Below are positions 7,402 to 56,827 of a stretch of 64,000 bases of DNA, piece after piece. The stretch lies in the NCBI GenBank assembly GCA_964448075.1, contig CAYUUR010000002.1, forward strand, positions 645 through 64,644, read 5' to 3'. Both the position numbers and the translations under genes were made by a program. A model generated the notes under the pieces. The model saw only the letters and a program-made list of their open reading frames with translations, was not told the origin of the DNA and ran no database searches. The stretch comes from an uncultured Candidatus Saccharibacteria bacterium (GTDB lineage: Bacteria > Patescibacteriota > Saccharimonadia > Saccharimonadales > CAYUUR01). Each line of letters opens with the position of its first letter. Positions within the stretch are counted from its first letter, which is position 1.

Positions 7402-7403
7402 CC

Positions 7404-34507: not shown

Positions 34508-34745
34508 ATGATAAAACAGTCTTTAACCAATATCAAGAAGTGCCGTGCTTACCGTAAGCATGTAACGATTTCGATGTACTGACCACAGTAGCAAATGCTC
34601 ACGAATATGTTATCCCTGTTGCTTTCTCTGTTAAAACGTGTATGCTTAAGTCACAGGTTCTTACTAGCCGATACATTGAAAAATGAGTGCTTCTAAGATA
34701 AAAAGGTCGTCCTGTGTTAGTTAACAAAGAAAAGAGTTCTACCAA

Positions 34746-35048: not shown

Positions 35049-35055
35049 ATGTTAG

Positions 35056-35092
35056 AAAGAACCCCTCGTTAATCCGAGGGGTTCTTTTTTTA
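35056..35092 (+). terminator. intrinsic terminator after the RRM gene
   Basis: AGAACCCCTCG-TTAATC-CGAGGGGTTCT followed by TTTTTTT. Confidence 0.7.
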
Positions 35093-35117
35093 TTGGCTGT
35101 TCACGTGAGACGAACTA

Positions 35118-35249
35118 TCAGAGGATGGTTGCACTTTTCGAGGGACGACCGCCACCACGGCTAGTCTGACCTCCTTTGCGTGCAATTTCTTTCTGTCGTG
35201 CCTTGTCCATTGCCGCGAAGCCTCGCTTTGCGGGTTTTTTGTCTGCCAT
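35118..35249 (-). CDS. KGG-repeat stress-induced small protein (YciG-like), 43 aa
   Basis: Minus-strand ORF MADKKPAKRGFAAMDKARQKEIARKGGQTSRGGGRPSKSATIL with a strong SD (AGGGGGAG) 7 nt upstream. Below the 60-aa cutoff of the ORF track. Confidence 0.6.
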   Translation of the reverse strand: MADKKPAKRGFAAMDKARQKEIARKGGQTSRGGGRPSKSATIL

Positions 35250-41119: not shown

Positions 41120-42064
41120 TTGAAACGTAATATATTTGTCATCACAACTGTTGTTCTAGTACTAATCAGCCTTTTTTTGGGCTATCAGCTCTTCTGCTCC
41201 AAGAAGAACGAGATGCCAACTGAAGCACAAGCCAAGTATCCGCTACTCGCCAAGCGTATATTCCTGGAGAACCCTAACGACACCATTGTTAACTTTACCC
41301 CTCTGCGCAAGCAGATAAGCGATTACTTAGCCAAAACAAAAATCCCGCATAGCTTCTACTTCGAATACCTACCGACGGGGTCAAATATCCGCGATGGCGA
41401 GACCAATGAACTAGTCGGTGCTTCTCTTATGAAGATTCCAATCGTCATGGATCTGTACAAAGCTGCAGAACTCGGCAAAGTTGACCTTGATAAGAAAGTG
41501 ACCGTGACCGCAGAAGCCGTCAGCAACGATGGTGTTTACGGCAATACTGACCAGCTCAAGCCAGGCGACAGCCTTACGCTCAGACAAGCCGCAAAAATTG
41601 CGCTCATCGAGTCAGATAACACAGCTGCCTACGTGGTATACGCAAACACAAAAACCGTCCTCAAAGATGATGAGCTGGCCATCAAAAGCCTCGATGTAGA
41701 GTTTGCTGAAACGAACACCGCAACCGGTAGCTACGTATTGATTGGTTCGCGTGCCTATTCTTCCTTTTTGTCATGCCTCTACTTCTCGTGCCATCTCAAC
41801 CGTGAGCACTCCCAAGAAATCCTCAATCAGCTAACTGAATCAAAGGACAACAATCGACTCCGCGCTGGTGTCCCCGCCGATGTCAAAGTAGCCCGTAAGA
41901 TTGGCTCGTTCAGCAAACAAACCCAGAGCGACTGTGGCATCGTGTATATACCGAATCGCCAATACTCCATCTGTTTGATGCTACAAAGCGACGACGCCAT
42001 GACGAACAATCACTTCAAAGCCATCTCTAAAATGGTCTACGATTACGTATCTACCGCTAATTAG
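41120..42064 (+). CDS. beta-lactamase/transpeptidase-fold serine hydrolase-like protein (class A-like)
   Basis: N-terminal TM/signal. S-x-x-K (SLMK), S-D-N (IESDNTA) and a variant KTG box (KIG). Confidence 0.55.
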   Translation: MKRNIFVITTVVLVLISLFLGYQLFCSKKNEMPTEAQAKYPLLAKRIFLENPNDTIVNFTPLRKQISDYLAKTKIPHSFYFEYLPTGSNIRDGETNELVGASLMKIPIVMDLYKAAELGKVDLDKKVTVTAEAVSNDGVYGNTDQLKPGDSLTLRQAAKIALIESDNTAAYVVYANTKTVLKDDELAIKSLDVEFAETNTATGSYVLIGSRAYSSFLSCLYFSCHLNREHSQEILNQLTESKDNNRLRAGVPADVKVARKIGSFSKQTQSDCGIVYIPNRQYSICLMLQSDDAMTNNHFKAISKMVYDYVSTAN

Positions 42065-45000
42065 TTCTGCGATTGCAGTGGAACATCTACGGTCTTTGCG
42101 TCTTTGACGCTGACCGCGGTCCAGGCAAACTCGATGTCCTCGGTGGCGTCTTCTGACAAGATGATCGTAAAGCCCTCTTCGTCCAGGTCGTCATAGGCAA
42201 ACTGCGTGAACTTACCGTTCTTGATGTTAACTGTCACGACCGGAGTATCTTCGTATGGCTTTTCGAATTCTATCTTCACTTTCTTTTGCGTCTTGTAGAT
42301 AGTAGCGAAGCCGGCGGAATCGTTGTTCTGGGTGAGCCGTCCCTCAATCTGCACATCTTTCTGGAAGATAACTGTGTCGACAAATGTTGCAAGGCGGTAG
42401 AAGATCGAGGCGCCGAGGAACTTGACTGGGCCAGCCACTTCTAACGCGCCATTTGCAAACAAGACACCATCAATAGTAAGGTCTTTGCTAACCGTTGCCG
42501 TTTTCACGATGAAGTTATCCATGTCTATTGCTGGTGTTACAGTACCCGTAGTAGTACTGGTGTTTGTACCTGTAGTGGGCTTGCCTGTCAGTTTGCCGAC
42601 TAGGATTTCTAAGCCTTCTATCTTATTAGCCTTGATGCTATCTGCCGTAATGTCTTTGGCGATGATGCTAAGACCATTTACCTCTAGTGCACTGACGCGA
42701 TCAGCCAATATCTCTGACTGCGGCTCGTCCGTTGCCACTTGCTGCTGTTTGCGGCCAAGTAGGTAGCGAATAATCTCGTCTGATTTTTGCAGCTTCTCAT
42801 CCAAGACACCTTCTTGGAGATTAACCAGTGGGCCAAGCACCGTATCTGGCAGTGTGAAGCCTGAGTCTTGGAATTCTTCCATAGCGACCTCTACTTTTTG
42901 ACCACTATAGTCGACCAAGTTCACAAATACCGTTATAGTCGTGCAGCGCAGATTATCTGGACTTCCTTCTGGACAATCAATAAGCGTGTCAGGATTAACG
43001 TCTTCAAGAGCGACACCGACGACTCGACCAGCAGCCACCGCCTTCATGCCGTGCCCCGGGATACTACTAGATGTGATCCTGTCACCAGATTTTATCTTTT
43101 CGTTCGGCTTAAGAGCAACCTTAACTGGCACGCGACCACTGAGAGCAATCGGATACGAATTATCTTCTTGTGGGCCGATGACAATACCCGGCTGGGTTGC
43201 CACAATTCCCAGTGCCTTATCGTCATATGGCTGGCTGGTCCGACGCACCACGCCAACGTTATTGTCTTCTGAGCTAACAATTTCTCCAGCAGTTAGCGAC
43301 TCAAACGAGGTAAAGCGCTCGGCAAGGTCAGCACCACCAACACCACCCACTTCTGAAGACACACCTGCCATACCATCGACAATCAGCTCACCCCGAATCG
43401 AGGATACATTACTGAAGAACTTATCGACGTCTTGCTCGAGATTTCTGTCGAATTTTTCGAACCATACGTTCGCCGAAGAGCCCATTGCCACCACACCGCT
43501 TTCTACCGAGAAGGCGTCAATGTCATCGGCGTCCGTACCCGACCAACTTGTGCTGGTAGTGTCTGTGACACCAGCATCTGAGTGGTAAAGATTTGATATG
43601 AAGGAATTTCCATAACCACCAAAGACGCTGACTGCCCCACCATCACTACCATTACTCGTTCCAACGTATAAGTCAGGGTTTGTGCCTAAGAAGTTCGAGT
43701 TATTGAGTGCGATCGACGTGACCGTATTGGTGTCCCCGTACAATTTCTCCGGGACAACCTCATAGTTTGAATCAGTGCTTGGCGTTACCGTCCAAGCCGG
43801 GCTAACGGTCAGGGTCGTGCCATCGTTGGCAATGACTCGTCTTGACTGACCAGCGCCTGTTCCGCCAGTAATCTCAACCATACTTCCCACAAATGCGTTA
43901 GTGACGTACGACTCTCCAGAGTCACCAATTGTAGTACTACTGCTTGTAGTCGCAGCCGATACGACTGTCGAAGGTTTAGCCAACGCGCTGCGTCCTTCAA
44001 GATATCGTTTCCTGATTTGTGCCTGACTGAGAGTATCAGATGTAGTAGCGCCACCACTGGCAAAGTAGACATCATCAATATCTCCATCCCAGAAGTTTCC
44101 ACCTGCGGCACCACTAGCGTCCGCACCAATCGTTAAAATTTGTGAAGCATCTAACGTACCGGTTGCTCCAAGCGTCGTGTCACAGCCAACGGCTAGTTTA
44201 CCATCAAGGTATAGACATATACCCGTATCCGTATTGAGAGCCACGACATGGTGCCATTGGTTATCGTTATATGTCTGAGTTGAGGTAACAGAGTCATCAT
44301 ACCCAGCAGTTGCAGCGGTATCCTGAATACCAAAAACGATTTGACCACTTGAGTTCATCTCAACCGTGTAGCCGATACCTTCCGTACCAGCAAACGCACT
44401 GTATCGCTTATCAATTAGAACGTCAGTACCTGTAACAGTCGCAGAGTGCTTAAACCACGCCTCTACATGGAATGAGATGGCCGCAACGTTGAAGTCAGCG
44501 TCTGTATCGCAAGTACCGTCATTATTAGCATCTGAACAGAGGAATTGGCTCGTGCCGTTGAATCTCAGCCCTGTGCCATGAACACCATTAACCCCATAAG
44601 TAGGCGCGACTTCTGGTTCAAGTACACTGTTGCGAATAGTTGCATCCGTCAGATCTCCAGATAGGTTATCAAAACTAAACATACCTCGTTGAGTCCCTGA
44701 CATATAACCAGTCTCGCGGCTAATATTGTAGTTCTTCGACCAACCAATAGAAGTACCAGACGCCGTGTTAGTATCGTGAACTTCTGTTAGCCCAGCGCTA
44801 TGGCCAACATATATCAGATCTGCCGCGTCGTCAGCCATCGATGCACGTTCCATTACTTTCAATGCATCAGGCGCACCCACCGCGAATGTTGGTGCGGCTG
44901 CACCATTTGCCACGTGCGGCAGGTTTGCAGCCTGCTCATCAAACACATCCGTAGGTGTTGCCTGGTCAGCTTTCGCTACATCGATACCGACCGTACCGTT

Positions 45001-48000
45001 TGCTTGCGTACCATATCGCTCTACTTGAGATAAGGTTACGTTGAGTCCGTAGAGACGACCTCTCTTCGTCACATAGACAGAGCTAAACTGATCTGTCAGG
45101 TTATCACCAAAATCAAGCGTTTGCTGTGCGGATAGGTTAATGACCGACATTGAATCATCTGTGGCAGCGGCAATAAACGTCGCACCGTTCAGTGGTCCAC
45201 CGTTTGTTTCGACAGAACTTGATCCATACAGCACCGAGCCGTGCACGGCATTTACAGCGTTATGGCGAATGGCCATAGCCGTACGACTATCGATGTTGTA
45301 CGTAACAGCCGTGTTACGGTTGGCGATATTCTTGTCACCCTGGTCTCGGTCAGTTGTGTTGTAGTTGAACAAACGATCACTTGTGAAGTCGATAGCATAT
45401 AAACCGCCTGCTGCCGAACCGTTTGCGCCGACGTACACAACCCCATTGAGCGCAAAGACACTGGAAGGATCATTGTTTGTATCGACGCCAATCGCGTAAC
45501 CAGATGCATTCTGGTTAAATTTCATGAACATTTTATAGTCATTGGCATCAAATATATACACCGCGCTTGAGGTAGATACGATAATCGCTTTCTTTGGAAA
45601 GGCCGACGAACCACAACGAGTGTCACTGGCAATATTACATGCGTCACCATAGCCATCGTTCTTACTCTCTGAGTACCAGCTCAAAGCTCGAGATGTTGGC
45701 GAGTCTGTCCATGCGCCAACATCAGAATCCTTAGTCGTGTCATATACGAAGATATCTGATATGCCCGTAAGGCCAGTCTGTTTTGAGATACCTTTCTTTA
45801 CAAGGTCGCCGTACAAATCAATCTGCCCCGGGCTCGTGGCGCTACCGACCTGGAACGTACCGTCAGTTTTGAGCGTAGCCACGCCACTGCGGTACAGATT
45901 GGTGTCGCGTGATGAGCCAAAGGCAATGCCGGCTGATGCGGTCGTATTATCAGCGTTACCGCTCAACCATAACGTCTGGGTATCTGCTGCATCAATACGC
46001 ACGCCATAGTCAGTGCTGCCAACGGACTGAGCAGCAACTCGAATTCCATAATTGTTCGCGATAGTTGCTCCTGAGACAGTAGCACTATTTATCTGTAAGC
46101 CTGCAGCCGTAGTGACCGTACCTCCACCTGCCATGCCAATCCCGCCCTCAAGCGCATACGCATCGGTCATGGTCCCGCCAAAGAACACACTCGAAACAGC
46201 GCCACTCACTCCAACGGCTTTTACTACGTCTCCACCGGCGACTCCGATTACCCCGCCCGAAAGGCCATAGATATAATCGGCGCTGCCGAAGGCATTACCG
46301 CCAGCCAAAACGTTAATCCCTTTTACGGTGGAGGTGCCAGTTCCAGCGTTGTCACCGCTTACGGTTAAATCCAGACCAAAGGTATTAATTGTCCCCCCGG
46401 TGGCACCTGACCTTGCCACTACTAATTGCTGACCATAGGTATTGTCAGTACCAGTCGTAACTATACCAGTATCTGAAACTGAAACCTTCAGGCTATAATC
46501 GTCCGCCGCAGTGGTATTGGTACTCGTAAACGCCGTGTCTATCTTGCCATTATCAGCAATAGTAAACACAGTCGTGCCATTGTCTTGAATGATGTAGTCA
46601 CCGGTACCGGCAAGGTTGGTGACTACATTGCCGGAGCCGTTATTCGTGATGGTATACGCAGGGTTGTCGGTCGCATCGAGTGTGTAGCTGTAAGCACCGG
46701 TGTCACTCAGCGTCATGAAGGCTGTTCCGTTATCTTGGAACTCGATATCGCCGGCACTTGCCAGGTTGTAGACGATGTCTGCAGCATCAACTGATGCCGA
46801 CGTAACCCGTAGTGGCGAAGCCGTTGAGCCACTAAGTGTAGCAATATCGGTAATGAATTGATCTTGTGCACCACCCCCGGTTGAAGCAGCGTTCTCAGTA
46901 AAGGTAAAGCCGCTTTCGGCTGCCGTCAGTTGCCAATTCCAGACCACGTTGTTTGCGGCATTGTTGATACTTGCCCCGGTCGTTGCAGCCGTCACCTGAT
47001 CGAGCCGCGCTCCGCTGCCACCAGCACCACAGCCTGCATCAGTCGTGTTACAGACGGTCTTTACGACGCCGTTTTCTATAATCTTCACCTTGTTGAGCGT
47101 TGAGTCATAGAACAAACCGCCGCTGAGCGCACTCAGGTTACTCGTTGGGTCAGCAGTTGTGCCGTCGAGCTGTAGAATCGTCGTAGCCGTATCGGTACCA
47201 GTAGAATTACCTATCTTTACCCTGTTACCGCCGCTGCCACTGCGAGTTGCCGTGTCTACTGTCATCACTGTTTCTGCTGCTGAGGCACTTTGTACCAGCA
47301 AGGCACTGCTGGCAGTACTGACCAGATTCAACGCATCGTCTGTTTTGAGTTGATTGGCTGCACCCCGATATAGGTTAGTGTCTCGTGACGTCCCAAATGC
47401 GATACCAGCCGCTGAAGTAGTCGGGTCAGCTTGATCGTTAGCAATCCATAAGGTTTGTGTACTTGATGCCCCCAGCGCAGCCGTATAGTTGCTACCTGCA
47501 GCCGTATTGCCGCCAACGAACAAGCTATAGGCAGTCGTAATTGTTGAGCCGGCACCCTCACTGACCCCGTCAACATACAAACCATAGGCAGTTGGCACCG
47601 TAAATGTAGCCGCTCCTGTAGCCGCTGCAACACGCAAACCAACAACGCTCGTTGGGTTCGTAGGATTCGTAATCGTCGCACCAATATACCCACCATAGCA
47701 ACCAAAGAGACAATCACGAGCACTGGTGAAGTTTTCCCTCACCTCAAGGGCAGTGGTGAGGATGCTTATTAGACCCGGGTCGCCAACATACAAGGCACCA
47801 TCTACCGCCACTCGAGAGGAAAGTGTATCAGCCGTAAATAGTGGTGTACCCGCAGCATTTTGGATTTCGAACGCTGTGGTTGTGTCGTCTCGCGGCCGTA
47901 TAAGCAAAGCCGTATCAATGGCGCCGCTAAATGCTAAAGTGCCGGCAGTGTATGAAAGCGCTGTTGAGCCGGCCGTAAGGCTAATTGCATCGATGTAAAC

Positions 48001-51000
48001 CGACCGCGCTGTAGCACTATTTTGTTCAATATAGAGGTACGGGTTACCAGAAACAGTGCCAGTCGTAAACGTACAGGTTGCACGCGTCCAGCCAGTGGTA
48101 TATGCAAACCCTGTAGCAAAACAGTCAGACTCAGTCGAACCATCACTAGCATAGCCTGCCCCGAGAGTTCCGTTCAGCAATACAGAAGTTCGAACGTTAA
48201 ATGACAGTGAGTAGGTCGTGGAACTCGTGAGCGTAATTGGGTATTTCACGCCATCACCACTCACCGCCGTCGTATCGAACTTCATTGATTGAGCGCCAGA
48301 GTAACGCTGAGCGTCGGTTTGGTGGACTCGGCTGGTTGAACCCTTTACCTGCCAGCCAGATGGAGCAGTTACTGCCTTGAAGCTCACCTTGTCTACGACA
48401 ATATAACGAGCTGTTGCATCAGTTTGCTTGATATAGAGGTATGGCGTACCGCTGACCGTAGTCGTCGTGACGATACAGTGATACTGCGCCCAGGTTGTAC
48501 TAATTGAGGAACTATTGAGGGTACAGTTAGATTCTGTTGAACCGTCATTGGCGTACCCTGCCGCCAACACAGAGCCGCTCCCCGCTACCGTTCGTGCCCA
48601 GAAGGTCAATTCATACGCCGTACTGTTAGGCAACGTCATGTTATATTTGGCACCATCGTTGGCAGCCGCGGTGGTTGTCAGCACCATCGATTTACTCTTG
48701 TCGTACACATAGGTGCCATCATACCCAATCGAGCCAGCACCCTTAGCTACCCAGTTACCCGAATCAGTCTCAAAGCTTGGGTTATTCATGAGATTGCTGG
48801 AGTCACCTGCTTCAAAGCCGCTGTTACTAATCAGATTGAATTGATTAACAGATGTGTCAACCTTGATAACGCTGTCACCTTCACTGTTTGCGACCGATAG
48901 TGCGCTACTGCTCGTTCCCTGCAATAACGCTCCAGAGAAGCTGGAATTGCCCGTGCTACTTGGTGGCGCCGAGTTAGTAACCCAACTAAGCGTTCCGTCA
49001 TCAACCAAACTACTCCTCGTCACTTCAACATACTGCGATAGTGACGTCCCAGAAATACAGTTGGCGCTCGGACATCGATAAACCCGGTATTTGGTCGCAC
49101 CCGGCACGGTGTTCCAGGTCATCCCTACAATATTATCTGCGGTCAGTGCATTACCTGTGGTCACCGTAAAGACTTTTTCATCACTCGGGTTGCTCTCGCC
49201 ACTCGTGTTGATCGCTGTTACGCGATAACGGAAGGTGTTGCCGGAGGTAAGCGTACCATCCGGCACTTCAGCATTGCTTACTTGACGGAAGTTAGACGGT
49301 GCAGCCAGTTCAGTTATGCTGAACGATCCACCATATTGGGTGTAACTGGTGTCGACAGTCAAGGTATTGTTTAGCTTTACACCCCGGTCGAGGAAGCCAA
49401 TGAGACTGGATGCGACGTCCGCGTTACCCTTATCGCTGAGATGTAGACCGTCCATTGTACCAGCGCCACCAGCACCATTATTATAGAAGCCTTCGCTCTC
49501 TGCCCAGCTAAAGTCACCACCCCACTTGCGCCACAAATCCAAGATGCCACAGCCGTTTTCGTCAGCTAGCTGATAAATGACATCTCGGTAGGACTGCACA
49601 CCAAAGACAGAGGTATCATCTCCCGTCTGCGGTGCTGGGATAATCAGCACACAGTCTGCCGGATCGCTTGACGCCTTGGCTTGACCTATCCATTTTTGGT
49701 AGGACTCTTTGAATCCTTGTGGCGTGGTGTTTGTGCCCTGTTCGTTTGTGCCGTATGCAAAGACCACGAGGTCGGGTCGTGGATCAAACACACCAATCGC
49801 CGAATCGTATGCATTGAATGTACCGTGCGTATACGTACTGGAGGTCGCCATGTTATTAACCCGGATACCTGTATCAAACGTCGCATCAATACCTTCGAGG
49901 TTAATACACTCGTAACCATTGCCACCATTGCCGTCATCAGGGACCGTGATACTCAGAGTGTGGGTTTTTTGCGGATCAAGATCGGCTACATTGACTCGGT
50001 TACCATAACTCAGCGTTGCGCCATTTGTTGTAACCGTACCAGTTGCCGCACCACCATCAACACTATAGTAGAACGAATCAAGGCCAATGAATGAGCTCTC
50101 TGTGTATTGGATGGCTAGATTATTACCACGGAAGTTAATCGTCAGCTCCGCCAGCCCACTCACCGTATTACACACTAGCAATGCACCACCCGCCGCCCCA
50201 CCGTTGCCAAGTGCGTATGATCCATAACTGCCCTGGGTGAACAATCTATTATCATAGGGCTTCTGGAAGCCCGTGCCACCGTCACCGTATTTTTCCTTCA
50301 AAGCTTTTTCTACCAAGGCCGGTGTACTCTTTACTGCCCGGTCAGAACCTGCCAGACCCCACGTAATGCTGTCACCGATAAAGTTGACGACCACCGCTTC
50401 GCTGTTGGCATTAGCCAAAGCACCACGGAAGTGTTTAAGTGACTCGTCAATGTTATAGGTGAAGTCTTTGATGCCTTGCTGGTCGTTACCGCCCAAGTAC
50501 TCAACATTTAGGTTTTCTACCAAGGCAGTTGAAGTAACGGTAATTGGTGGCGTACCCTGTGGCGCGGCTAGCTTGATGTTATTGGTTATGATGCCCGCAC
50601 CCACAAAGCCAGTTTTTTGCGGTCGGTTAACGGTCAACTGGTTGTCGGCCGTGTTGTCGGTGTAGGTTGTGGTCGAGTTATTGGCAATGGTACCGACCAG
50701 CATGAATGGCCCCGTAACGTTATCGTTGATTGGCTGAGCAAGAATGTTGTTTTGAGGAGTTAGGAACGAACGATAAATCTTACGCGCTACTGTTCCTGGA
50801 GGCCCAGCCGATATGCTGGTCAGACTCGCCTGCTGACCTGTGCCGTCAGGTGTCACTGTGCCTGACATAGTACTGAGCGCACTTTCTGCGCCACTGGCAT
50901 TCACATAGCTATATGCCCAAACATATTTTAGGTTCTGAGTAAGGTTACCCGCTGATGTAATAAGACTCGCCGATGGTGCAGCCGGGCGGTTAGAAGTGTT

Positions 51001-52665
51001 CTCGCTGGTTGGCGGCTTAATGTTCGTGTTCAATGAGCCATCGCCATTATTGTCATCTCTTTGACTGACTGATGGGTCAGTAATCGTTCCGCTGGTATCG
51101 GTTGAAGTTCCCGTCAAGCGAAGTGTTGGGTTGTAATAATACGTACTACCACCTGATTGCGTTCGGTAGACACGCATGGCGCTGACATTCTTGACACCAC
51201 CAAACGGCATTTCCTTCAGCGATATGCCATTTGAAGACGCTGCAAAGGTATTGCTAACTGGCCCGGCGGCAGTTTCACCCCACGGCGTCACATAGGTCAG
51301 AACATATGAATAGTTACCAGTGAGTGCGCCCGCTCCAGCTGAACCAACGAGCGGACCAACTTGTGGCGGTGCAATCGGCATTGGCGGAGCATACGTCAAT
51401 GATGTATCGGCTGTGTCATCTGTATAAGTTGTTGTTGTATTGTCAGCAATCTCAGTCAGGAACCTCCAGCCAGTCGTGACACCATCAACTTGCCGTGTGG
51501 TACGGTAGATCTTTCGTGATTTTGTACCTGCAGGACCGGTTGGTATAGCGGTCAGATCAACTTGTTTACTGGCTGGCGCAACACTACTACTGGTCGGGCC
51601 AGGCAAAGTTTCACCGGCGAACGTTGTGTACGTTACTACGTATGTATACGTTCCGTTCAAGTTACCTGCCGTTGCGCTTGCTGTTGCTGTCAGCGCAGAG
51701 GCTGGAGGATCCAGCGCTGCAACGATGTTACCACCTGCGTCTACCCGCCCCATTACCTCGCTTGAGCTGTTCAAGTATCGTTGCAAATCACCGGTCTGTG
51801 CCGCGCTATTGCCTTGGATAACGGAGACTATTTCTGAAGCACTCGTGCCCTGCACCTGCAGGCTTGCTGTTGGGGCAGCGTTGTTAATTCCAACACGCTT
51901 ATTAGTCGTATCAACGTCAAATATTGTTGCCGAACCGGCCGCGTTCTTTACCTGCAACGCTGTTACTGCGTCAGTCTGTGGTTTGAATAACAACGATCCA
52001 GCGTTATCTATAACGAGCACGTCGCTACCACCGCGTTGCAGTTGAAGTATGTCGCCGCTCGCTCCAGTTTTGTTTATTCCAATTGAGTCATTTGAGCTTG
52101 CATCGACCTGCAATGTACCTTGACCGAGCTGCACGATCTCGTCTTTCGTCAGTCCTCCTAAACGTTTAGCATTTTTTGCATATGGCGTTGCACTGAAACG
52201 CGTAAATGGAAGCATTTCGCCATCCCAAGATGGGCTACCGGTGCCGCCAACATCAATCGATAACCACAAGCTGTCCTGGTTCCAGTCGACATTAGTTGAA
52301 AATGCAGTTACTGAGCCAAGATACACAGAAAAGTAGCCATTTTTGACCCGTACCTTGTTAGTACTGTCCCTGGTTTCTGTCCATTCAAGTGTTCCACCAC
52401 AAGGTGATGAGCCTGAAACTTCACAGCCGTCACCATCTTGGTACACCTTAAAACGTAGGTTATAGAATCCATCGGGCACAACTGCACCAGTGTCATCAAG
52501 CAATCGAGCCTGAAAGTTAAGCTGTTCATTGATACCAGTAGAATTATAAGTTTTACTTCGGTAGAGCTGAGTGCTCACCGCTGATATGGCCAAAATCAGA
52601 GCAAGCACGCATATCTGCACTTTCCTACTCTTCCACCAGTGTTTTTTGAGCCGTATGTTGTTCAT
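42061..52665 (-). CDS. giant (3534 aa) secreted/anchored multidomain surface protein, adhesin- or tail-fibre-like
   Basis: Single uninterrupted ORF with an N-terminal signal/TM. Fn3-like repeats (YRYRVTAINTSGESNPSDE), an SGNH/GDSL hydrolase motif (NFIGDSITWG), tandem CBM-like jelly rolls (NPSFE...GSTES.C...PYLYI), a Gly/Ser/Thr-rich fibrous region, a LamG-like domain (NQWHHVVALN) and a conserved C-terminal module (ALSGRVPVKV...TSSSIPGHGMKA). Confidence 0.9.
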   Translation of the reverse strand: MNNIRLKKHWWKSRKVQICVLALILAISAVSTQLYRSKTYNSTGINEQLNFQARLLDDTGAVVPDGFYNLRFKVYQDGDGCEVSGSSPCGGTLEWTETRDSTNKVRVKNGYFSVYLGSVTAFSTNVDWNQDSLWLSIDVGGTGSPSWDGEMLPFTRFSATPYAKNAKRLGGLTKDEIVQLGQGTLQVDASSNDSIGINKTGASGDILQLQRGGSDVLVIDNAGSLLFKPQTDAVTALQVKNAAGSATIFDVDTTNKRVGINNAAPTASLQVQGTSASEIVSVIQGNSAAQTGDLQRYLNSSSEVMGRVDAGGNIVAALDPPASALTATASATAGNLNGTYTYVVTYTTFAGETLPGPTSSSVAPASKQVDLTAIPTGPAGTKSRKIYRTTRQVDGVTTGWRFLTEIADNTTTTYTDDTADTSLTYAPPMPIAPPQVGPLVGSAGAGALTGNYSYVLTYVTPWGETAAGPVSNTFAASSNGISLKEMPFGGVKNVSAMRVYRTQSGGSTYYYNPTLRLTGTSTDTSGTITDPSVSQRDDNNGDGSLNTNIKPPTSENTSNRPAAPSASLITSAGNLTQNLKYVWAYSYVNASGAESALSTMSGTVTPDGTGQQASLTSISAGPPGTVARKIYRSFLTPQNNILAQPINDNVTGPFMLVGTIANNSTTTYTDNTADNQLTVNRPQKTGFVGAGIITNNIKLAAPQGTPPITVTSTALVENLNVEYLGGNDQQGIKDFTYNIDESLKHFRGALANANSEAVVVNFIGDSITWGLAGSDRAVKSTPALVEKALKEKYGDGGTGFQKPYDNRLFTQGSYGSYALGNGGAAGGALLVCNTVSGLAELTINFRGNNLAIQYTESSFIGLDSFYYSVDGGAATGTVTTNGATLSYGNRVNVADLDPQKTHTLSITVPDDGNGGNGYECINLEGIDATFDTGIRVNNMATSSTYTHGTFNAYDSAIGVFDPRPDLVVFAYGTNEQGTNTTPQGFKESYQKWIGQAKASSDPADCVLIIPAPQTGDDTSVFGVQSYRDVIYQLADENGCGILDLWRKWGGDFSWAESEGFYNNGAGGAGTMDGLHLSDKGNADVASSLIGFLDRGVKLNNTLTVDTSYTQYGGSFSITELAAPSNFRQVSNAEVPDGTLTSGNTFRYRVTAINTSGESNPSDEKVFTVTTGNALTADNIVGMTWNTVPGATKYRVYRCPSANCISGTSLSQYVEVTRSSLVDDGTLSWVTNSAPPSSTGNSSFSGALLQGTSSSALSVANSEGDSVIKVDTSVNQFNLISNSGFEAGDSSNLMNNPSFETDSGNWVAKGAGSIGYDGTYVYDKSKSMVLTTTAAANDGAKYNMTLPNSTAYELTFWARTVAGSGSVLAAGYANDGSTESNCTLNSSSISTTWAQYHCIVTTTTVSGTPYLYIKQTDATARYIVVDKVSFKAVTAPSGWQVKGSTSRVHQTDAQRYSGAQSMKFDTTAVSGDGVKYPITLTSSTTYSLSFNVRTSVLLNGTLGAGYASDGSTESDCFATGFAYTTGWTRATCTFTTGTVSGNPYLYIEQNSATARSVYIDAISLTAGSTALSYTAGTLAFSGAIDTALLIRPRDDTTTAFEIQNAAGTPLFTADTLSSRVAVDGALYVGDPGLISILTTALEVRENFTSARDCLFGCYGGYIGATITNPTNPTSVVGLRVAAATGAATFTVPTAYGLYVDGVSEGAGSTITTAYSLFVGGNTAAGSNYTAALGASSTQTLWIANDQADPTTSAAGIAFGTSRDTNLYRGAANQLKTDDALNLVSTASSALLVQSASAAETVMTVDTATRSGSGGNRVKIGNSTGTDTATTILQLDGTTADPTSNLSALSGGLFYDSTLNKVKIIENGVVKTVCNTTDAGCGAGGSGARLDQVTAATTGASINNAANNVVWNWQLTAAESGFTFTENAASTGGGAQDQFITDIATLSGSTASPLRVTSASVDAADIVYNLASAGDIEFQDNGTAFMTLSDTGAYSYTLDATDNPAYTITNNGSGNVVTNLAGTGDYIIQDNGTTVFTIADNGKIDTAFTSTNTTAADDYSLKVSVSDTGIVTTGTDNTYGQQLVVARSGATGGTINTFGLDLTVSGDNAGTGTSTVKGINVLAGGNAFGSADYIYGLSGGVIGVAGGDVVKAVGVSGAVSSVFFGGTMTDAYALEGGIGMAGGGTVTTAAGLQINSATVSGATIANNYGIRVAAQSVGSTDYGVRIDAADTQTLWLSGNADNTTASAGIAFGSSRDTNLYRSGVATLKTDGTFQVGSATSPGQIDLYGDLVKKGISKQTGLTGISDIFVYDTTKDSDVGAWTDSPTSRALSWYSESKNDGYGDACNIASDTRCGSSAFPKKAIIVSTSSAVYIFDANDYKMFMKFNQNASGYAIGVDTNNDPSSVFALNGVVYVGANGSAAGGLYAIDFTSDRLFNYNTTDRDQGDKNIANRNTAVTYNIDSRTAMAIRHNAVNAVHGSVLYGSSSVETNGGPLNGATFIAAATDDSMSVINLSAQQTLDFGDNLTDQFSSVYVTKRGRLYGLNVTLSQVERYGTQANGTVGIDVAKADQATPTDVFDEQAANLPHVANGAAAPTFAVGAPDALKVMERASMADDAADLIYVGHSAGLTEVHDTNTASGTSIGWSKNYNISRETGYMSGTQRGMFSFDNLSGDLTDATIRNSVLEPEVAPTYGVNGVHGTGLRFNGTSQFLCSDANNDGTCDTDADFNVAAISFHVEAWFKHSATVTGTDVLIDKRYSAFAGTEGIGYTVEMNSSGQIVFGIQDTAATAGYDDSVTSTQTYNDNQWHHVVALNTDTGICLYLDGKLAVGCDTTLGATGTLDASQILTIGADASGAAGGNFWDGDIDDVYFASGGATTSDTLSQAQIRKRYLEGRSALAKPSTVVSAATTSSSTTIGDSGESYVTNAFVGSMVEITGGTGAGQSRRVIANDGTTLTVSPAWTVTPSTDSNYEVVPEKLYGDTNTVTSIALNNSNFLGTNPDLYVGTSNGSDGGAVSVFGGYGNSFISNLYHSDAGVTDTTSTSWSGTDADDIDAFSVESGVVAMGSSANVWFEKFDRNLEQDVDKFFSNVSSIRGELIVDGMAGVSSEVGGVGGADLAERFTSFESLTAGEIVSSEDNNVGVVRRTSQPYDDKALGIVATQPGIVIGPQEDNSYPIALSGRVPVKVALKPNEKIKSGDRITSSSIPGHGMKAVAAGRVVGVALEDVNPDTLIDCPEGSPDNLRCTTITVFVNLVDYSGQKVEVAMEEFQDSGFTLPDTVLGPLVNLQEGVLDEKLQKSDEIIRYLLGRKQQQVATDEPQSEILADRVSALEVNGLSIIAKDITADSIKANKIEGLEILVGKLTGKPTTGTNTSTTTGTVTPAIDMDNFIVKTATVSKDLTIDGVLFANGALEVAGPVKFLGASIFYRLATFVDTVIFQKDVQIEGRLTQNNDSAGFATIYKTQKKVKIEFEKPYEDTPVVTVNIKNGKFTQFAYDDLDEEGFTIILSEDATEDIEFAWTAVSVKDAKTVDVPLQSQN

Positions 52666-52813: not shown

Positions 52814-53905
52814 TTAGCGAACAACACCTTTAACAATTAAACTGATTGCGATCTTCTCTCCGATCCAAAAACTAAATGTCATTATTGTAACGAGTGCAAA
52901 AGCTGGCCATACCCTATTTGCGCCATCAACAATTTGGTTCTGAAAGATACAAACCGCATCCAACTGACAGCGCTGAGTTAGATTACCTGTTGCAGAAAGG
53001 TTTACTGCCGTCTTACCATCAACGACAACAACCGTCTGAAAGATAGCGCTACTACCACTTGCATCTGTTACGGCAATCTTGACCTCGTACTGACCTGATG
53101 TCTTATAGGTGTGCTTTATTCGCTGATCGCCACCCCCAGAAAACGTAAGCTTTGAGGTTTCACCGTCACCCCAGTCAACCGTAACATCGTACGGCGCTTG
53201 GCCTTTTTGGATACGAAACGTCAGAACCACCGTCTTTGTCGACTGGCTCACACGAAAGAAATTCTTGCTTTTGATAGTAACGCTGGATGTATTTACGACT
53301 GGGGTTTGGCTATTCTGATTGTTCGGCGCAACGGGTTCTGGCTCGACTGTCGGCTCAATTGTCGTGTCGTAAAATACAGTTATCGTAGTGGAGTCTGGTC
53401 CATATTGGTTAAAGATATCTGTAGTCCGAACAAGTAAAACATTACTACCGGGAACCAAACTGACGCCTATCTCATACAACCCATTTGAGTCACAGGTAAC
53501 AGAACCTGCCAATACTGCATTACGGTACACTTCAACGATATAGTCGTGTTCACAAGATCCTGATACGGTAACCAACGCCGAGGTTACCGTAGCGTTACTA
53601 GTTGGTGAACTAATCGTCGCAGGAATACTCGGTGGCGGCCCTGGTACTACCCCACTCAAAGTAACACTGCCAGAATCTGTCACGGTCTGACCACTTACGA
53701 CAACGTGCCGAATAAGAAAAACACTAAGCGCAGAAAGAACAATCAGAAAGAACAGTAACGCGTAAGATGTCTCATGGAATGCTATTCTTTTGCCGGTATG
53801 CCTACGGTGACTGACGTGAATTGGGCGGCGTTTTTTCTGAGACGACGCTTTGACGATACTCGCGCTACGCTTGGTTGCCTTTTTTGCCATCGCGCTTTCG
53901 CCCAC
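52814..53905 (-). CDS. PKD-domain, Ig-like membrane-anchored surface protein
   Basis: Basic N-terminus plus TM, Ig-like segments, a PKD motif (VTVDWGDGETS...HTYKTSGQYEV) and a C-terminal TM. Confidence 0.65.
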   Translation of the reverse strand: MGESAMAKKATKRSASIVKASSQKKRRPIHVSHRRHTGKRIAFHETSYALLFFLIVLSALSVFLIRHVVVSGQTVTDSGSVTLSGVVPGPPPSIPATISSPTSNATVTSALVTVSGSCEHDYIVEVYRNAVLAGSVTCDSNGLYEIGVSLVPGSNVLLVRTTDIFNQYGPDSTTITVFYDTTIEPTVEPEPVAPNNQNSQTPVVNTSSVTIKSKNFFRVSQSTKTVVLTFRIQKGQAPYDVTVDWGDGETSKLTFSGGGDQRIKHTYKTSGQYEVKIAVTDASGSSAIFQTVVVVDGKTAVNLSATGNLTQRCQLDAVCIFQNQIVDGANRVWPAFALVTIMTFSFWIGEKIAISLIVKGVVR

Positions 53906-54875
53906 TTTTACCTTGTGCTTTATTGACGATGTATTGGTTGTAGCGTTTGACGAAAATCACCAGCAACAGCACACCGCCAAGGAAGATAGCAATCAACTTG
54001 TATGGGATAACCCAGAAAGTCATTGAATCTGAGACGATGTTGTTTTTCTCTCCGTAAACGACGTCAGCCTGAACCGTATAGCGGCCAAAAAGTAGCTTGT
54101 TGCTCAATTCTTGCTCAAATTTTCGAGTACTTCCTGGTAATACATTTCCGCCGTTTTCATTGAGAGAGAACGTCTCTACTTCACGTCCGAAGATATTGCT
54201 GACCCGTACGGTACCTGAGGGTTTAAAGAACACGTTGCCAGTGTTTTTGATTCTCTCTGTTATCATAACCGGGCCGTATTCAAATATGCTGCGTCTCTTA
54301 CCATTTTGAGAAGTGAACAATTCACTTACTTCTGCACTTTCCGTAGTATTGCCCGAAACATTCACAAGCATCAACGTTCCGACACTTGCAGATAGTGAGA
54401 CTCCTGTGTCTTCAAGTTCTGGAGGTGTTCCTGTAAAACGAATGACCCCAAAATGACCTCCCGGACTGGCATTGTCAGGAACCCGCAATGTTACTTTAAC
54501 TGATTTTTGCTCACCTGTTTTAAGGGTGATTGTTGGGATTGAAACGATCCAAGATTTAATCGAGTATGGGCTTTCCTCATCCGCATCTAACAGTAACTTC
54601 GGCTGACCATCTTCACCATTGGCGACAAAGTCATTGACCTGTGCCTTTATCACGAGTGAATCTTGCGTGACATTGCGAACACGAATGGTTGAATTAATTA
54701 CCTTGCCTGGATCGGCCTTTAGTTCAATCAGCGGAGGAGAAATCTCCAGACCCTGCCCACTTTGGGCATGACCAATATTGGGAGCCACAAACAGTAGTAA
54801 CAAGATAGAAGCACTTGCAACAATACTCAACACTCTCTTCATACTAGCCGATGTCCCTCTTCCCCAAATTCTCAT
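53865..54875 (-). CDS. secreted Ig-like beta-sandwich protein with a C-terminal TM anchor and KR-rich tail
   Basis: Signal peptide (ILLLLFVAPNIGHA), beta-rich body, C-terminal TM (LIAIFLGGVLLLVIFV) and KRYNQYIVNKAQGKSGRKRDGKKGNQA. Confidence 0.55.
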   Translation of the reverse strand: MRIWGRGTSASMKRVLSIVASASILLLLFVAPNIGHAQSGQGLEISPPLIELKADPGKVINSTIRVRNVTQDSLVIKAQVNDFVANGEDGQPKLLLDADEESPYSIKSWIVSIPTITLKTGEQKSVKVTLRVPDNASPGGHFGVIRFTGTPPELEDTGVSLSASVGTLMLVNVSGNTTESAEVSELFTSQNGKRRSIFEYGPVMITERIKNTGNVFFKPSGTVRVSNIFGREVETFSLNENGGNVLPGSTRKFEQELSNKLLFGRYTVQADVVYGEKNNIVSDSMTFWVIPYKLIAIFLGGVLLLVIFVKRYNQYIVNKAQGKSGRKRDGKKGNQA

Positions 54876-54897
54876 TGATAACAGTATATCAGATTAA

Positions 54898-55974
54898 CTA
54901 GAAGGTTGCGGTTGCAATATACGTCATAGTTGCAGTATATGTACCGGCCTCTGTTGCTGTATCGATATTGGCAATATAGGCTACCTGATAGCGACGAAAT
55001 GACTCAGATGTTCCCTTGCTCGCAACACTATCAGCCGTAACAAAACGGAACTGATCAACAGTGTTATAGGACGCAGTTGGCGTACCCGAGCCAGCACCGT
55101 CAGGGTCTGCACCAATATTAGGGGTAGCGTTGTCGCGCAGGTTGATTCCAAATTGTTCAGTTCCGGTTGTTGACGCAGTTTGAGAGGCAAGCGCCGAAAT
55201 CGTATTACCACCCGAGGTGAGCGTTGCGCCATTAACCGTAATCGCATAACCGCTTCCTCCGTTTGTACCTACGCCCATTTGCGACAAACCAGTACCGGTA
55301 GTGCTTGGTGTCAATGTACCAAGAGATACTGCAGAACCAGTCGCGCCAGAACAACTACTGGTTGTAATGCCGCTCGTGCCAGTACAGAACGTAAGTGTCT
55401 CGTCAACGGTAGCACTCACAGTGATCTGTTGCGCAGTACTCGCAGCAACAACACCGGTATCAACACTTGTTGTCCATGCAGCATCGGAGAACGTACTAAT
55501 ACGGGCGAAGAATGTGGTGTTTTGAGCTGTTGGGTTGGTGATTCCACCAAAGACAACCGTTTGTGAGCCAGTTGGTGCAGCAACGTTACCACTCTTAGAG
55601 ATACGCAGGCTACCCGCTGTGGAGGTGTTAACCGTCCAGCCGGTAGCATCACCAAGGTTGGTTGGCTGTGAAGCAAGTGTTGAACTAGAGTTAACAAAAC
55701 CAGAAGGAGTGGAACATGCGCCTGAGGCTGTCGTACAAATCTGGGCTTGCATTGATTGGAGTACAGTCGCAGATGGTACGGTAAAGTTAAATGTATACGT
55801 AACGCCCGTGCCCGCTCCGGCGGAGTTTGAAAGAGTAACTTTACGTGCGGTTATTTGGGCTGCAGAGACCTGCGCGTTAAAGACAGACTGGAGCGCAAAA
55901 ACAGCTAAAAAAACAGCTATCAACAGATACGTTACTTGCTGAACTTTCTGCTGTGCGTAAATGGTTTTTGACAT
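54898..55974 (-). CDS. Thr/Ser/Gly-rich secreted protein (paralog A)
   Basis: Signal peptide. About 30% T/S/G. Shares TEQFGINL(R/V)(D/A)N and a C-terminal (T/G)TY(T/S) motif with the next gene. Confidence 0.55.
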   Translation of the reverse strand: MSKTIYAQQKVQQVTYLLIAVFLAVFALQSVFNAQVSAAQITARKVTLSNSAGAGTGVTYTFNFTVPSATVLQSMQAQICTTASGACSTPSGFVNSSSTLASQPTNLGDATGWTVNTSTAGSLRISKSGNVAAPTGSQTVVFGGITNPTAQNTTFFARISTFSDAAWTTSVDTGVVAASTAQQITVSATVDETLTFCTGTSGITTSSCSGATGSAVSLGTLTPSTTGTGLSQMGVGTNGGSGYAITVNGATLTSGGNTISALASQTASTTGTEQFGINLRDNATPNIGADPDGAGSGTPTASYNTVDQFRFVTADSVASKGTSESFRRYQVAYIANIDTATEAGTYTATMTYIATATF

Positions 55975-56040
55975 GTTTGATTATTACCTTAAGTACTTTG
56001 CTAAATTGTACTATACATTATAAGCATAAACAACAATTTT

Positions 56041-56781
56041 CTAGTATGTGCCGATACAGACGAGCGTTTGTTCACCACTGTATGTACCGCCAGCCGTAGT
56101 GTTAGCGGCGTTTATGATGTAGGACATCGTGTACTCAGTGAGGCCAGAGCTCGCTGCAGCCGAAGCTATTGTCTCACCAGCAACATACCGAAAGTTGTTG
56201 GCGGTATTGTAGTTACTAGCTGCTGCCCCGGATGAGAAACTGCTATCCGGCGTCTGTTCAGGGTTGTCGCCAAACGTTGTTGGCGAAGTATTGGCAACAA
56301 GATTGATGCCAAATTGCTCAGTACCGGGTACTGAAGGTCCGGTTGAGTTCATGCCGGCCAGCGTGTAAGCGCCTGTACTAGGTGGACTGCCGACTATTTG
56401 CACGATGTATCCGTATGACGTGTAATTAAGAACACTGAATGTTGCGGTGGCGGTGGCGGCGACTGAGGTGGAAAGAGCACCGAAGTTAACATTTGCGGTA
56501 TCAACTGTACAGCTCAGCGATGGATCGTTAGTCGATATTGGACCACTGTCCGCTTTGTAACTGGTTGAACCACTCGGCCCACCACCAACACCATTCACAG
56601 CTTGTTGACCCGGTGCAGTACCATAGTTAGTGGAATTGCTCTCGAGGCTACCGCCTGGCCCCACAAATGACTCTTCGATCTGGAAGTTACTCGACGAACT
56701 CTGCGCCACGACCAAACCAACAGATAGATTAATAGCAGCAACAACGATGCCCAAATAGATCAATACCCTCTTCATCTGCAT
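56041..56781 (-). CDS. Thr/Ser/Gly-rich secreted protein (paralog B)
   Basis: Signal peptide. Shares TEQFGINLVANTSP and the NFRYVAGE/QFRFVTAD region with paralog A. Confidence 0.55.
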   Translation of the reverse strand: MQMKRVLIYLGIVVAAINLSVGLVVAQSSSSNFQIEESFVGPGGSLESNSTNYGTAPGQQAVNGVGGGPSGSTSYKADSGPISTNDPSLSCTVDTANVNFGALSTSVAATATATFSVLNYTSYGYIVQIVGSPPSTGAYTLAGMNSTGPSVPGTEQFGINLVANTSPTTFGDNPEQTPDSSFSSGAAASNYNTANNFRYVAGETIASAAASSGLTEYTMSYIINAANTTAGGTYSGEQTLVCIGTY

Positions 56782-56827
56782 CTATTATACGGATTGTACC
56801 AAACCAGCGCAAAGCGCTTATGGCTAA

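Follow-up and report, generated by a model that had tools for sequence, protein, structure and literature searches.

A mosaic giant gene in a Patescibacteria genome encodes a predicted surface fibre with a module related to the phi29 gp12 autochaperone

An uninterrupted gene of 3534 codons

The stretch of DNA analysed here, termed the window, is 64,000 nucleotides long and derives from a member of the Patescibacteria (CPR), as identified by the closest locus (L001, from Patescibacteria group bacterium MAG_90) and by the labels of homologs, which are assigned to Pacebacteria, Campbellbacteria, Microgenomates and Saccharimonadales. On its minus strand, positions 42061–52665 encode a protein of 3534 amino acids plus the stop codon, starting with ATG. 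The frame contains no internal stop, and the probability of such a length arising by chance is ~e^-170. A preliminary description of the window had claimed a single uninterrupted minus-strand reading frame of 3534 residues, and had named frameshifts or an assembly chimera as what would undo it; the frame is borne out by an independent copy on the metagenome contig Ga0073934_10010753 (hereafter L002). There, a colinear open frame is 74% identical to window residues 8–3223, with the same domain order and free of frameshifts across 3,259 aligned positions; this copy is incomplete, as the frame leaves the contig at its end. The great length of the gene, together with the far shorter version in the related MAG_90 genome, could point to a chimeric assembly or to a pseudogene in decay. 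Against this stand the colinear L002 copy and its retention of the catalytic residues and cysteine pairs, and we assign this possibility a negligible probability.

An exact-sequence look-up of the 3534-residue protein found no record, and scans of the protein against PHROGs and NCBIfam returned no match. A homolog search with residues 701–1600 also returned zero matches, probably owing to low-complexity words in the query; because a later metagenome scan found L002, the empty search is no evidence of uniqueness. The Pfam scan of the whole protein overlooked the CBM_4_9 modules described below, which a segment-wise scan recovered.

N-terminus and stalk

Residues 1–35 (52561–52665; this and all further features lie on the minus strand) comprise a basic N-terminus and a hydrophobic stretch, predicted to be a Sec signal peptide or a signal anchor. 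In a Kyte-Doolittle scan, residues 13–35 are the sole hydrophobic segment of the protein and are preceded by Lys/Arg, consistent with the signal/TM anchor proposed in the preliminary description; the N-termini of the MAG_90 and L002 orthologs are laid out alike. Of the cysteines of the protein, 24 fall into 12 close pairs, ten of which are kept in L002 and one of which is lost there as a pair. Together, the N-terminal segment and the paired cysteines suggest that the protein is Sec-exported. A whole-protein scan found neither an LPXTG motif nor a C-terminal hydrophobic tail, so that, were the signal peptide cleaved, retention on the cell would be left unexplained.

Following the signal region, residues 41–175 (52141–52545) form a conserved domain delineated by family comparison, with the consensus INYQGRL...GLF.V.LG...PR. 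This domain is common to 86 of the 150 best family representatives; it has no Pfam match, and a profile search of the PDB with it gave nothing significant, so that the jelly-roll fold proposed for it in the preliminary description is conjectural.

A first Gly/Ala/Ser/Thr-rich fibre segment (residues 176–321, 51703–52140) diverges from the MAG_90 ortholog past residue ~225. It is followed by three Fn3-like repeats (residues 322–690, 50596–51702; individual boundaries 322–424, 436–540 and 562–690), and a fourth lies at residues 1121–1226 (48988–49305). Pfam is silent on these repeats, and it is their repeat profile, which matches the phage virion protein 8jov (6.9e-6), Gp6.1 (1.4e-5) and titin Fn3 domains (1.3e-4), that lends some support to the four Fn3-like repeats read earlier from the translation. 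A Gly/Ala/Thr/Ser-rich fibrous region, defined by composition, extends over residues 1576–2255 (45901–47940) and holds a ~130-residue module twice (residues ~1653–1784 and ~2136–2275; motif AGIAFG.SRDTNLYR...LKTD); residues 1580–2270 gave nothing significant in a PDB sequence search and have no Pfam relative. Closer to the C-terminus, residues 2881–3100 (43366–44025) make up an uncharacterised region that includes a ~60-residue unit (residues 2907–2970), found tandemly repeated in other surface proteins (P0015, P0023 and P0043); a PDB sequence search with residues 2880–3100 likewise gave nothing significant.

An embedded SGNH esterase and candidate glycan-binding modules

Residues 755–1095 (49381–50403) constitute an SGNH esterase domain, matching Lipase_GDSL_2 at 1.2e-14 (55.7 bits against a curated cut-off of 32.9). 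The SGNH/GDSL signature noticed in the preliminary description thus belongs to a domain with an intact catalytic set: G764-D-S766 (block I), G972-T-N974 (block III) and D1072-G-L-H1075 (block V), all of which are kept in L002. An insert of ~170 residues (residues ~790–955) separates block I from the remainder of the domain. Just four PDB sequences matched this part of the protein, among them 8gkd and, as second-best, 4k3u, which we take to be Neisseria meningitidis Ape1; the 4k3u alignment is gapped in the same manner between block I and the remaining SGNH domain. The SGNH fold of Ape1 carries an inserted CBM35 (bioRxiv 10.1101/2021.09.23.461501; PMC9487903). Like Ape1, the O-acetylesterase that acts on peptidoglycan in Neisseria and Campylobacter, the window domain is of the GDSL_2 family and has the same catalytic residues; its insert after block I, similar in size to an accessory domain of ~150–170 residues, is a candidate for a counterpart of the domain inserted in Ape1. 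The similarity is modest (E 1.9e-4) and, while Ape1 is a periplasmic enzyme, the SGNH domain here is embedded in a 3,534-residue fibre. We predict an Ape1-like O-acetyl-esterase, for which peptidoglycan is one candidate substrate.

The protein offers five candidate glycan-binding modules. Two tandem CBM_4_9 modules occupy residues 1290–1575 (47941–48798); the segment-wise Pfam match (3.3e-14, 53.9 bits against a cut-off of 25.9) comprises two stretches, in agreement with the two tandem CBM-like modules first read from the translation, and the region also has a weak CBM22 match in the PDB. A LamG/ConA-like lectin domain, proposed in the same description, is recognised as Laminin_G_3 at residues 2725–2868 (44062–44493; 6.9e-15, 55.9 bits against a cut-off of 27.6). 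A beta-propeller (residues ~2302–2646, 44728–45762) was modelled by AlphaFold with a pTM of 0.69 and matched the BT4663 sensor propeller and WD40 proteins in Foldseek at ~1e-6. Residues 3445–3521 (42103–42333), at the C-terminus, adopt an H-type lectin beta-sandwich fold in the model at moderate confidence (pLDDT ~65–89); the Pfam H-type lectin score of 13.7–14.5 bits falls under the cut-off of 24. The nearest known counterparts of this domain are the H-type lectins (Helix pomatia agglutinin, SLL-2 and the discoidin I/II C-domains) and R-pyocin fibre tips. Both the propeller (residues ~2300–2650) and the H-type-lectin-fold domain were absent from the preliminary description.

A beta-tulip module related to phi29 gp12

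Profile and fold searches identified residues 3103–3248 (42922–43359) as a module resembling the autochaperone domain D4 of gp12, the pre-neck appendage protein of phage phi29 (Peptidase_G2). The best PDB matches of its profile are the D4 chaperone of the Dpo31 tailspike and phi29 gp12, and the fold is a tandem beta-tulip like that of PDB 3gqh. At its N-terminal edge, residues 3112–3116 (A-D-L-A-E, 43318–43332) include D3113 and a second acidic residue, E3116, which align to D692 and E695 of gp12, are invariant in 34 of 34 sequences, and are kept in both orthologs and in phage copies. In gp12 the cut lies at S691/D692, a position taken from the chain start in the PDB, from MEROPS family G2 and from the published end of the mature protein. 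Mature gp12* terminates at residue 691 (PMC6542822), and D4 is a trimerising autochaperone built of tandem beta-tulips (bioRxiv 10.1101/216911).

As in gp12, the module sits distally on a long fibre, and it also ends long reading frames on phage contigs. It departs from gp12 in several respects: i) its sequence is too diverged for the Pfam model, the window protein having no match to PF11962 (Peptidase_G2) at E<=1 and just 9 of 34 family members having weak ones (best 2.1e-4); ii) a Cys-Cys loop (Cys3231–Cys3241) is inserted; iii) the host protein is cellular, with a predicted signal peptide, and not a virion protein; and iv) the module is not terminal. It ends at residue 3248 of 3534, and the ~286 residues beyond it comprise a helical, coiled-coil-like stalk with short strands (residues 3249–3444, 42334–42921; monomer model of low confidence) and the H-type lectin fold. 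Among 170 relatives on viral contigs, the module is terminal in all 80 loci that were kept, with the match beginning at ADLAE; it is terminal also in short proteins from outside the CPR. The preliminary description had likened the C-terminal block to the autoproteolytic chaperone module of phage tail fibres. The phage-type chaperone/autoproteolysis module stands; its position is internal, and the Ser-Lys dyad of the S74 type for which a check had been proposed gives way to the Asp/Glu G2 type of phi29 gp12. Pfam scans of the entire protein and of its segments gave no Peptidase_S74 (PF13884) match. With the endosialidase-type (Peptidase_S74) domain the module shares a general logic, in which a chaperone at the C-terminus of a phage fibre serves trimerisation and cleaves itself; the fold and catalytic residues differ.

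By analogy with gp12, the module probably cuts the chain at A3112/D3113 via the Asp/Glu pair. Such a cut would release the lectin tip, an odd design, and the module may therefore serve as a trimerisation clamp alone. The protein would then still be a surface fibre, with the beta-tulip module as a permanent, uncleaved clamp and the H-type lectin as a covalent distal receptor-binding tip. A lectin placed behind a removable chaperone is indeed hard to rationalise; moreover, neither here nor in most top representatives is the module terminal (104 of the 150 best have more than 200 residues past the last module), 138 of the same 150 bear at least two modules, and the next-best structural matches are non-cleaving beta-tulip capsid decoration proteins. 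To our knowledge, capsid decoration proteins lack the D-x-x-E motif. The invariance of its D and E, and their retention in all three orthologs and in phage copies, fit a catalytic pair and would not be required of a clamp, and we consider a permanent clamp possible yet on the unlikely side; a cleaving module remains our preferred reading.

Mosaic descent and chromosomal setting

The syntenic ortholog in MAG_90 is 2096 residues long and lacks residues 323–1778 entirely, that is, the 1,456-residue enzyme/CBM cassette. The C-terminal half of the window protein is 91% identical to the MAG_90 ortholog versus 57–71% to L002. The N-terminal two-thirds, for their part, are 77–89% identical to L002, although the genes that flank the giant gene share just 55–69% with L002. 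These identity patterns mark the gene as a recombinant mosaic. A search for repeats of at least 40 nt, direct or inverted, found none that involves the gene; with no template/variable repeat pair found, we rejected the possibility that the gene is the target of a diversity-generating (DGR) system.

Five co-directional genes lie upstream (52814–57931) in the same order as in MAG_90: their products are a PrsA/PpiC-like foldase, a pair of paralogous secreted proteins of 246 and 358 residues, a WxLIP_PGBD protein whose C-terminus carries a TM segment, and a PKD protein. The PKD and WxLIP genes are likewise upstream of the giant gene in L002. This conserved synteny suggests a functional tie between the five genes and the giant gene. 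The presence of an RNase P RNA, of six tRNAs and of housekeeping neighbours indicates a cellular context.

This setting bears on the alternative that the gene belongs to a prophage or tailocin and encodes its tail fibre in place of a protein of the cell surface. In favour of this, phage structural proteins are the nearest relatives of the C-terminal module, of the Fn3-like repeats and of the fibre motifs. The protein itself has no PHROG match, starts with a signal/TM segment and contains cysteines in pairs; none of the neighbours scanned with Pfam is a phage gene, the chromosomal surroundings are syntenic between two genomes, and the module, always terminal in phages (80 of 80 loci), is internal here. 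We rejected the prophage reading and consider it very improbable.

A GH15-like gene and glycosyltransferase genes are also found near the giant gene, and these favour another view, in which the protein is not an adhesin and would act as an extracellular glycan-processing enzyme or scaffold, a monomeric string of beads that harvests sugars or acetate from polysaccharides of environmental or host origin. The combination of SGNH, CBM_4_9 and Fn3 domains is one well known from polysaccharide esterases (PMC9487903). Set against this view are the single catalytic domain in 3534 residues, the dispensability of the SGNH/CBM cassette in the syntenic MAG_90 ortholog, and the nature of the conserved core, a phage-fibre-like N-terminal domain and a C-terminal assembly region that would have no role in a soluble enzyme. 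We judge a soluble enzyme or scaffold to be improbable relative to a surface fibre.

A very large family of giant proteins

The module recurs in ~30,571 protein clusters, many of them giants of up to 6,814 residues that share the N-terminal domain. A Pfam scan of 13 such giants found beta-propellers, one S74 domain (P0083) and one endosialidase domain; it found no GDSL or CBM domain in these 13, a scan in which long proteins lose weak matches. No Pfam or NCBIfam model spans the whole protein or the frame of N-terminal domain, cargo and module. The earlier suggestion that this is not a described family therefore holds insofar as no model covers the whole, and fails in that the module is widespread and giant CPR surface proteins have already been published. 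By sequence comparison, the window protein is a member of a very large unnamed family of predicted giant surface fibres, and a good example of it in place of a one-off.

Passages of two published accounts bear on such proteins: host attachment is the role inferred there for giant surface proteins of the CPR, and reshuffling of their domains by recombination has been proposed (PMC8080830, PMC11809585). Like the membrane giants of Vampirococcus lugosii and the FhaB/DUF2341 giants of Patescibacterium danicum, as portrayed in those passages, the window protein is modular, predicted to be membrane- or surface-located, multi-kilodalton and equipped with adhesion-type domains. The domain sets given there are FhaB, DUF2341, WD40, PKD and integrin; a frame running from N-terminal domain through gp12-D4 module to lectin is not described in those passages.

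A model for the giant fibre

Taken together, these observations lead to a model that we consider reasonably probable: a Sec-exported CPR surface fibre, built on the plan of phage tail fibres and tailspikes, that binds glycans, is cleaved by its own module and swaps cassettes. The preliminary description had read the protein as an attachment fibre with glycan-binding and esterase activities; the domain make-up fits, with the attachment function and the substrate as predictions. The epibiotic setting suggested there is reasonable, given the Patescibacteria/CPR relatives of the genome.

In this model, the signal or anchor segment and the conserved N-terminal domain would be located at the cell. 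The Fn3-like and Gly/Ala/Thr-rich stalk would project the SGNH esterase, the two CBM_4_9 modules, the propeller and the LamG domain, in that order; by a rough estimate, such a fibre would measure tens of nanometres. Known relatives of the beta-tulip module, of the coiled-coil stalk and of the H-type lectin fold are trimeric, and by analogy the C-terminal part formed of these three elements most likely nucleates trimerisation. Against a trimeric fibre stands the normally monomeric state of the globular SGNH, CBM, LamG and propeller modules. After trimerisation, the module would probably cleave between A3112 and D3113, as gp12 does between S691 and D692, and the resulting 422-residue, lectin-tipped piece may be retained as a bound cap or shed. 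The fibre would bind glycans of the partner or host envelope and de-O-acetylate them, peptidoglycan being a candidate, which could lead to attachment and local conditioning of the envelope. Its specificity may evolve by gain, loss and exchange of cassettes among lineages.

A bolder version, which we regard as doubtful, holds that CPR bacteria have adopted the full assembly logic of phage tailspikes. The gp12-type cut would arm the fibre or shed the lectin cap, the Ape1-like esterase would strip O-acetyl groups from host peptidoglycan at the point of contact and open the wall, and exchange of the cassette and of the C-terminal head would set host range. If true, swaps of the 1,456-residue cassette and of the C-terminal head would parallel tail-fibre swapping in phages.

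Host recognition and attachment by ultra-small CPR bacteria are poorly understood, and few of these bacteria have been cultivated. The window protein contributes concrete, testable parts to this problem, namely the predicted cleavage site A3112/D3113, the catalytic serine S766 and the five candidate glycan-binding modules. The frame of N-terminal domain, variable cargo and gp12-like module is common to tens of thousands of unannotated proteins, and models for the N-terminal domain and the diverged module would improve the annotation of many genomes. The presence or absence of the cassette, and the recombinant pattern among three related genomes, provide a natural experiment, on a small scale, in the diversification of such fibres.

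Integrity and chromosomal setting of the giant gene

The giant gene (42061–52665, minus strand) is a single uninterrupted 10.6-kb reading frame, as the preliminary description had it; translation proceeds from an ATG start through 3534 residues with zero internal stops, and the chance probability of an open frame this long is ~e^-170. The window is a segment of a bacterial chromosome, with an RNase P RNA, six tRNA genes and ordinary neighbor genes such as those for a PpiC foldase, glycosyltransferases and Fic. The closest public locus is contig L001 of ‘Patescibacteria group bacterium MAG_90’, and protein homologs carry the labels Pacebacteria, Campbellbacteria, Microgenomates, Gottesmanbacteria and Saccharimonadales, which places the source organism among the CPR/Patescibacteria.

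The earlier concern that frameshifts might expose the frame as an assembly chimera was dispelled by L002, a JGI metagenome contig whose open frame spans 3251 residues or more. This frame is colinear with window protein residues 8–3223 at 74% identity, differs by short indels only, and continues past the contig end, ruling out an assembly artefact. Ten of the 12 cysteine pairs are kept in L002, and the C2817/C2828 pair is substituted jointly, as a pair; disulfides in a protein that is exported and subject to purifying selection should behave in this way.

Two other loci in the window were recorded. Positions 34589–35090 (502 nt) are 99.6% identical to L001, with the surrounding DNA at ~78–86%. 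They span the gene for a small RRM-type glycine-rich RNA-binding protein (34746–35048, plus strand) and its upstream region; leader-like Rfam matches near 35012–35150 were all sub-threshold. This identity peak could reflect extreme conservation or recent transfer. Furthermore, a 46-nt copy (18239–18284) of the 3′ half of tRNA-Pro (18136–18211) lies 74 nt downstream of the original at 78% identity. Neither ARAGORN nor Rfam called a tRNA there, and the copy may have been left by an integration event or by the decay of a tRNA.

Domain organization of the window protein

Residues 1–35 comprise a basic stretch and the sole hydrophobic segment of the protein, which does not contain an LPXTG motif. 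A conserved N-terminal domain follows (residues 41–175), tentatively read before as jelly-roll-like, for which Pfam and PDB searches gave no relative. Four Fn3-like repeats (residues 322–690 and 1121–1226) have no Pfam match; a profile of the repeats matches titin Fn3 at 1e-4 and, at ~1e-5, two virion proteins of phages. Downstream lie two CBM_4_9 modules (residues 1290–1575), overlooked by a Pfam scan of the whole 3534-residue sequence and detected at 3.3e-14 with a 311-residue piece; whole-sequence scans will under-report domains in censuses of giant proteins. A fibrous Gly/Ala/Thr/Ser-rich region (residues 1576–2255), containing a ~130-residue module present twice, precedes a beta-propeller (residues ~2302–2646; model pTM 0.69, Foldseek propeller matches ~1e-6), a Laminin_G_3 domain (residues 2725–2868; Pfam 6.9e-15) and an uncharacterised region (residues 2881–3100). 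The C-terminal end is made up of a gp12-like module (residues 3103–3248), a stalk that is helical with short strands in the AlphaFold model (residues 3249–3444), and an H-type-lectin fold (residues 3445–3521). The signal/TM segment, mid-protein SGNH/GDSL esterase, tandem CBM-like modules, fibrous region and LamG/ConA-like domain read previously from the sequence were thus all recovered; the propeller and the lectin fold had been overlooked.

The SGNH/GDSL_2 esterase (residues 755–1095; Pfam 55.7 bits, cut-off 32.9) possesses the catalytic residues S766, N974 and D1072/H1075, which are also present in L002. Between block I (GDS) and the remainder of the fold, ~170 residues intervene. A PDB sequence search with this part returned four matches in total, including 4k3u, 8gkd and 8gld, the latter two labeled ‘SGNH esterases’ in the search output. 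We take 4k3u to be Neisseria meningitidis Ape1, a peptidoglycan O-acetylesterase, and presume that 8gkd and 8gld are also Ape1-type enzymes. In Ape1, a CBM35 is inserted inside the SGNH fold (bioRxiv 10.1101/2021.09.23.461501; PMC9487903); in the window protein, the ~170-residue insert follows block I. For the SGNH domain, ‘Ape1-like’ is a lead rather than an established identity.

An internal gp12-like module

An alignment of the C-terminal module from 34 proteins revealed an invariant D-x-x-E at the module start, together with invariant GR and GD motifs. The best PDB matches of the alignment profile were the Dpo31 tailspike ‘chaperone domain D4’ and the phi29 pre-neck appendage protein gp12, with the D and E aligned to gp12 D692 and E695. 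PDB chain 3gqh starts exactly at D692, and mature gp12* terminates at residue 691 (PMC6542822); a published source reports that D4 homologs had been noticed before in ‘some bacterial adhesion proteins’. The module is confidently modeled by AlphaFold (pLDDT 86–91 in a model of residues 3085–3534), and its DLAE motif is kept in both L001 and L002. Pfam searches of the whole protein and of segments gave no Peptidase_S74 match. The C-terminal block is a phage-type chaperone/autoproteolysis module, as had been proposed, albeit of the Asp/Glu (MEROPS G2) type instead of the Ser-Lys type, and not at the protein end. The predicted scissile bond lies between A3112 and D3113.

In 80/80 phage loci from IMG/VR, the module ends the ORF and the match begins exactly at ADLAE; the module is terminal also in shorter proteins of other phyla. 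In contrast to these gp12-type phage loci, the window protein and its CPR relatives continue for ~290 or more residues, placing the module internally, with a lectin-tipped extension after it. If the module cuts, a 422-residue lectin-tipped piece would be released; if not, it would act as a clamp. The invariance of the D and E residues favors catalysis over a clamp, and we give self-cleavage by the Asp/Glu module an even chance.

Mosaic evolution of the giant gene

L001 and the window have five upstream genes in common, plus a convergent beta-lactamase-family gene, and the syntenic giant gene in L001 encodes only 2096 residues. Its residues 1–345 are 59% identical to window residues 1–322 and are fused directly to the equivalent of window residues 1779–3528, at 91% identity. 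Residues 323–1778 have no counterpart there; this block takes in the SGNH domain with the Fn3-like repeats on either side of it (three before, one after), both CBMs and a portion of the fibrous region. L002 presents the reverse, with 77–89% identity in the N-terminal two-thirds and 57–71% in the C-terminal third. By their flanking genes (PKD 55% and WxLIP 69% identity for L002; 71–98% for L001), L002 is the more distant genome. Judged from these opposite patterns against the flanking-gene distances, the giant gene is, at the level of sequence, a recombinant whose parts differ in their history. Identity to L002 is lowest in the signal/TM segment (30%), LamG (57%) and residues 2881–3100 (59%); the SGNH insert at 61% and the propeller at 64% come next. 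Ligand contact is likely for several of these least-conserved parts. A repeat search found no DGR-type repeat involving the giant gene.

Neighboring genes

A conserved five-gene cluster (52814–57931, minus strand) lies just upstream, in the same order in MAG_90. Its products are a PpiC/PrsA-like foldase anchored in the membrane, a pair of secreted paralogs of 246 and 358 residues (34% identical across the C-terminal 123 residues, no Pfam match), a WxLIP_PGBD protein (WxL-interacting-protein peptidoglycan-binding domain) whose C-terminus bears a TM segment, and a PKD/Glucodextran_B protein with a TM anchor. The cluster is presumably similar to the Firmicutes loci for WxL-type cell-surface complexes.

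At the 3′ end, a convergent Beta-lactamase2-family gene (41120–42064, plus strand) shares 4 nt with the giant gene. On the Campbellbacteria contig L004, a gene of the same family (6546–7538) follows the giant-gene homolog, there on the same strand, and this adjacency may be conserved. Within L004 1–6477, a 759-residue gene call precedes that 1432-residue homolog (P0056) with ~100-nt overlap and extends to the contig end; both calls may belong to a single longer gene that a frameshift or the gene caller has divided.

A large family of modular surface proteins

When 1.84 billion representative proteins were searched with a profile, the module turned up in 30,571 clusters, 7,002 of them at E ≤ 1e-30. 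Among the best 150 representatives, 138 possess two or three modules, 104 extend >200 residues beyond the last module, 86 start with the N-terminal domain of the window protein and 31 end in the lectin-like domain; 16 reach 3,000 residues or more (maximum 6,814). From this census and the common frame, the window protein therefore belongs to a very large unnamed family in which an N-domain and a gp12-like module flank variable cargo. In most best-scoring members (P0080–P0229), tandem D-x-x-E beta-tulip copies are several hundred residues apart; if every copy cleaves, the giants would end up as several pieces. P0083 (4272 residues) bears an additional Peptidase_S74 domain, and an endosialidase catalytic domain occurs in 1 of 13 family giants scanned.

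Earlier reports describe giant surface proteins of CPR bacteria, connect them with host attachment and propose recombinational domain reshuffling; the portions of these reports that describe them give other domain sets than that found here (PMC8080830, PMC11809585). Giant modular CPR surface fibres built from phage-fibre parts are a known kind; new in the window protein are the internal gp12-type module with its lectin-tipped extension and the esterase/CBM cassette.

Taken together, an exported, glycan-binding, esterase-carrying trimeric fibre is the picture we favor, with somewhat better than even confidence. The sequence and fold of the window protein are shown; how it is exported, assembled and cut, what it acts on and what it does for the cell we infer as follows. 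Export would proceed through Sec, with the N-terminus holding or anchoring the protein, possibly helped by products of the upstream cluster, as synteny suggests. Trimerisation would be nucleated by the beta-tulip, the stalk and the lectin fold at the C-terminal end, upon which Asp/Glu self-cleavage is probable. On the resulting fibre, the CBM, propeller, LamG and lectin modules and a single O-acetyl-esterase would be displayed to the envelope glycans of a partner cell. The giant gene supplies exact residues open to test, and brings to light a very large family without a name in current domain libraries.
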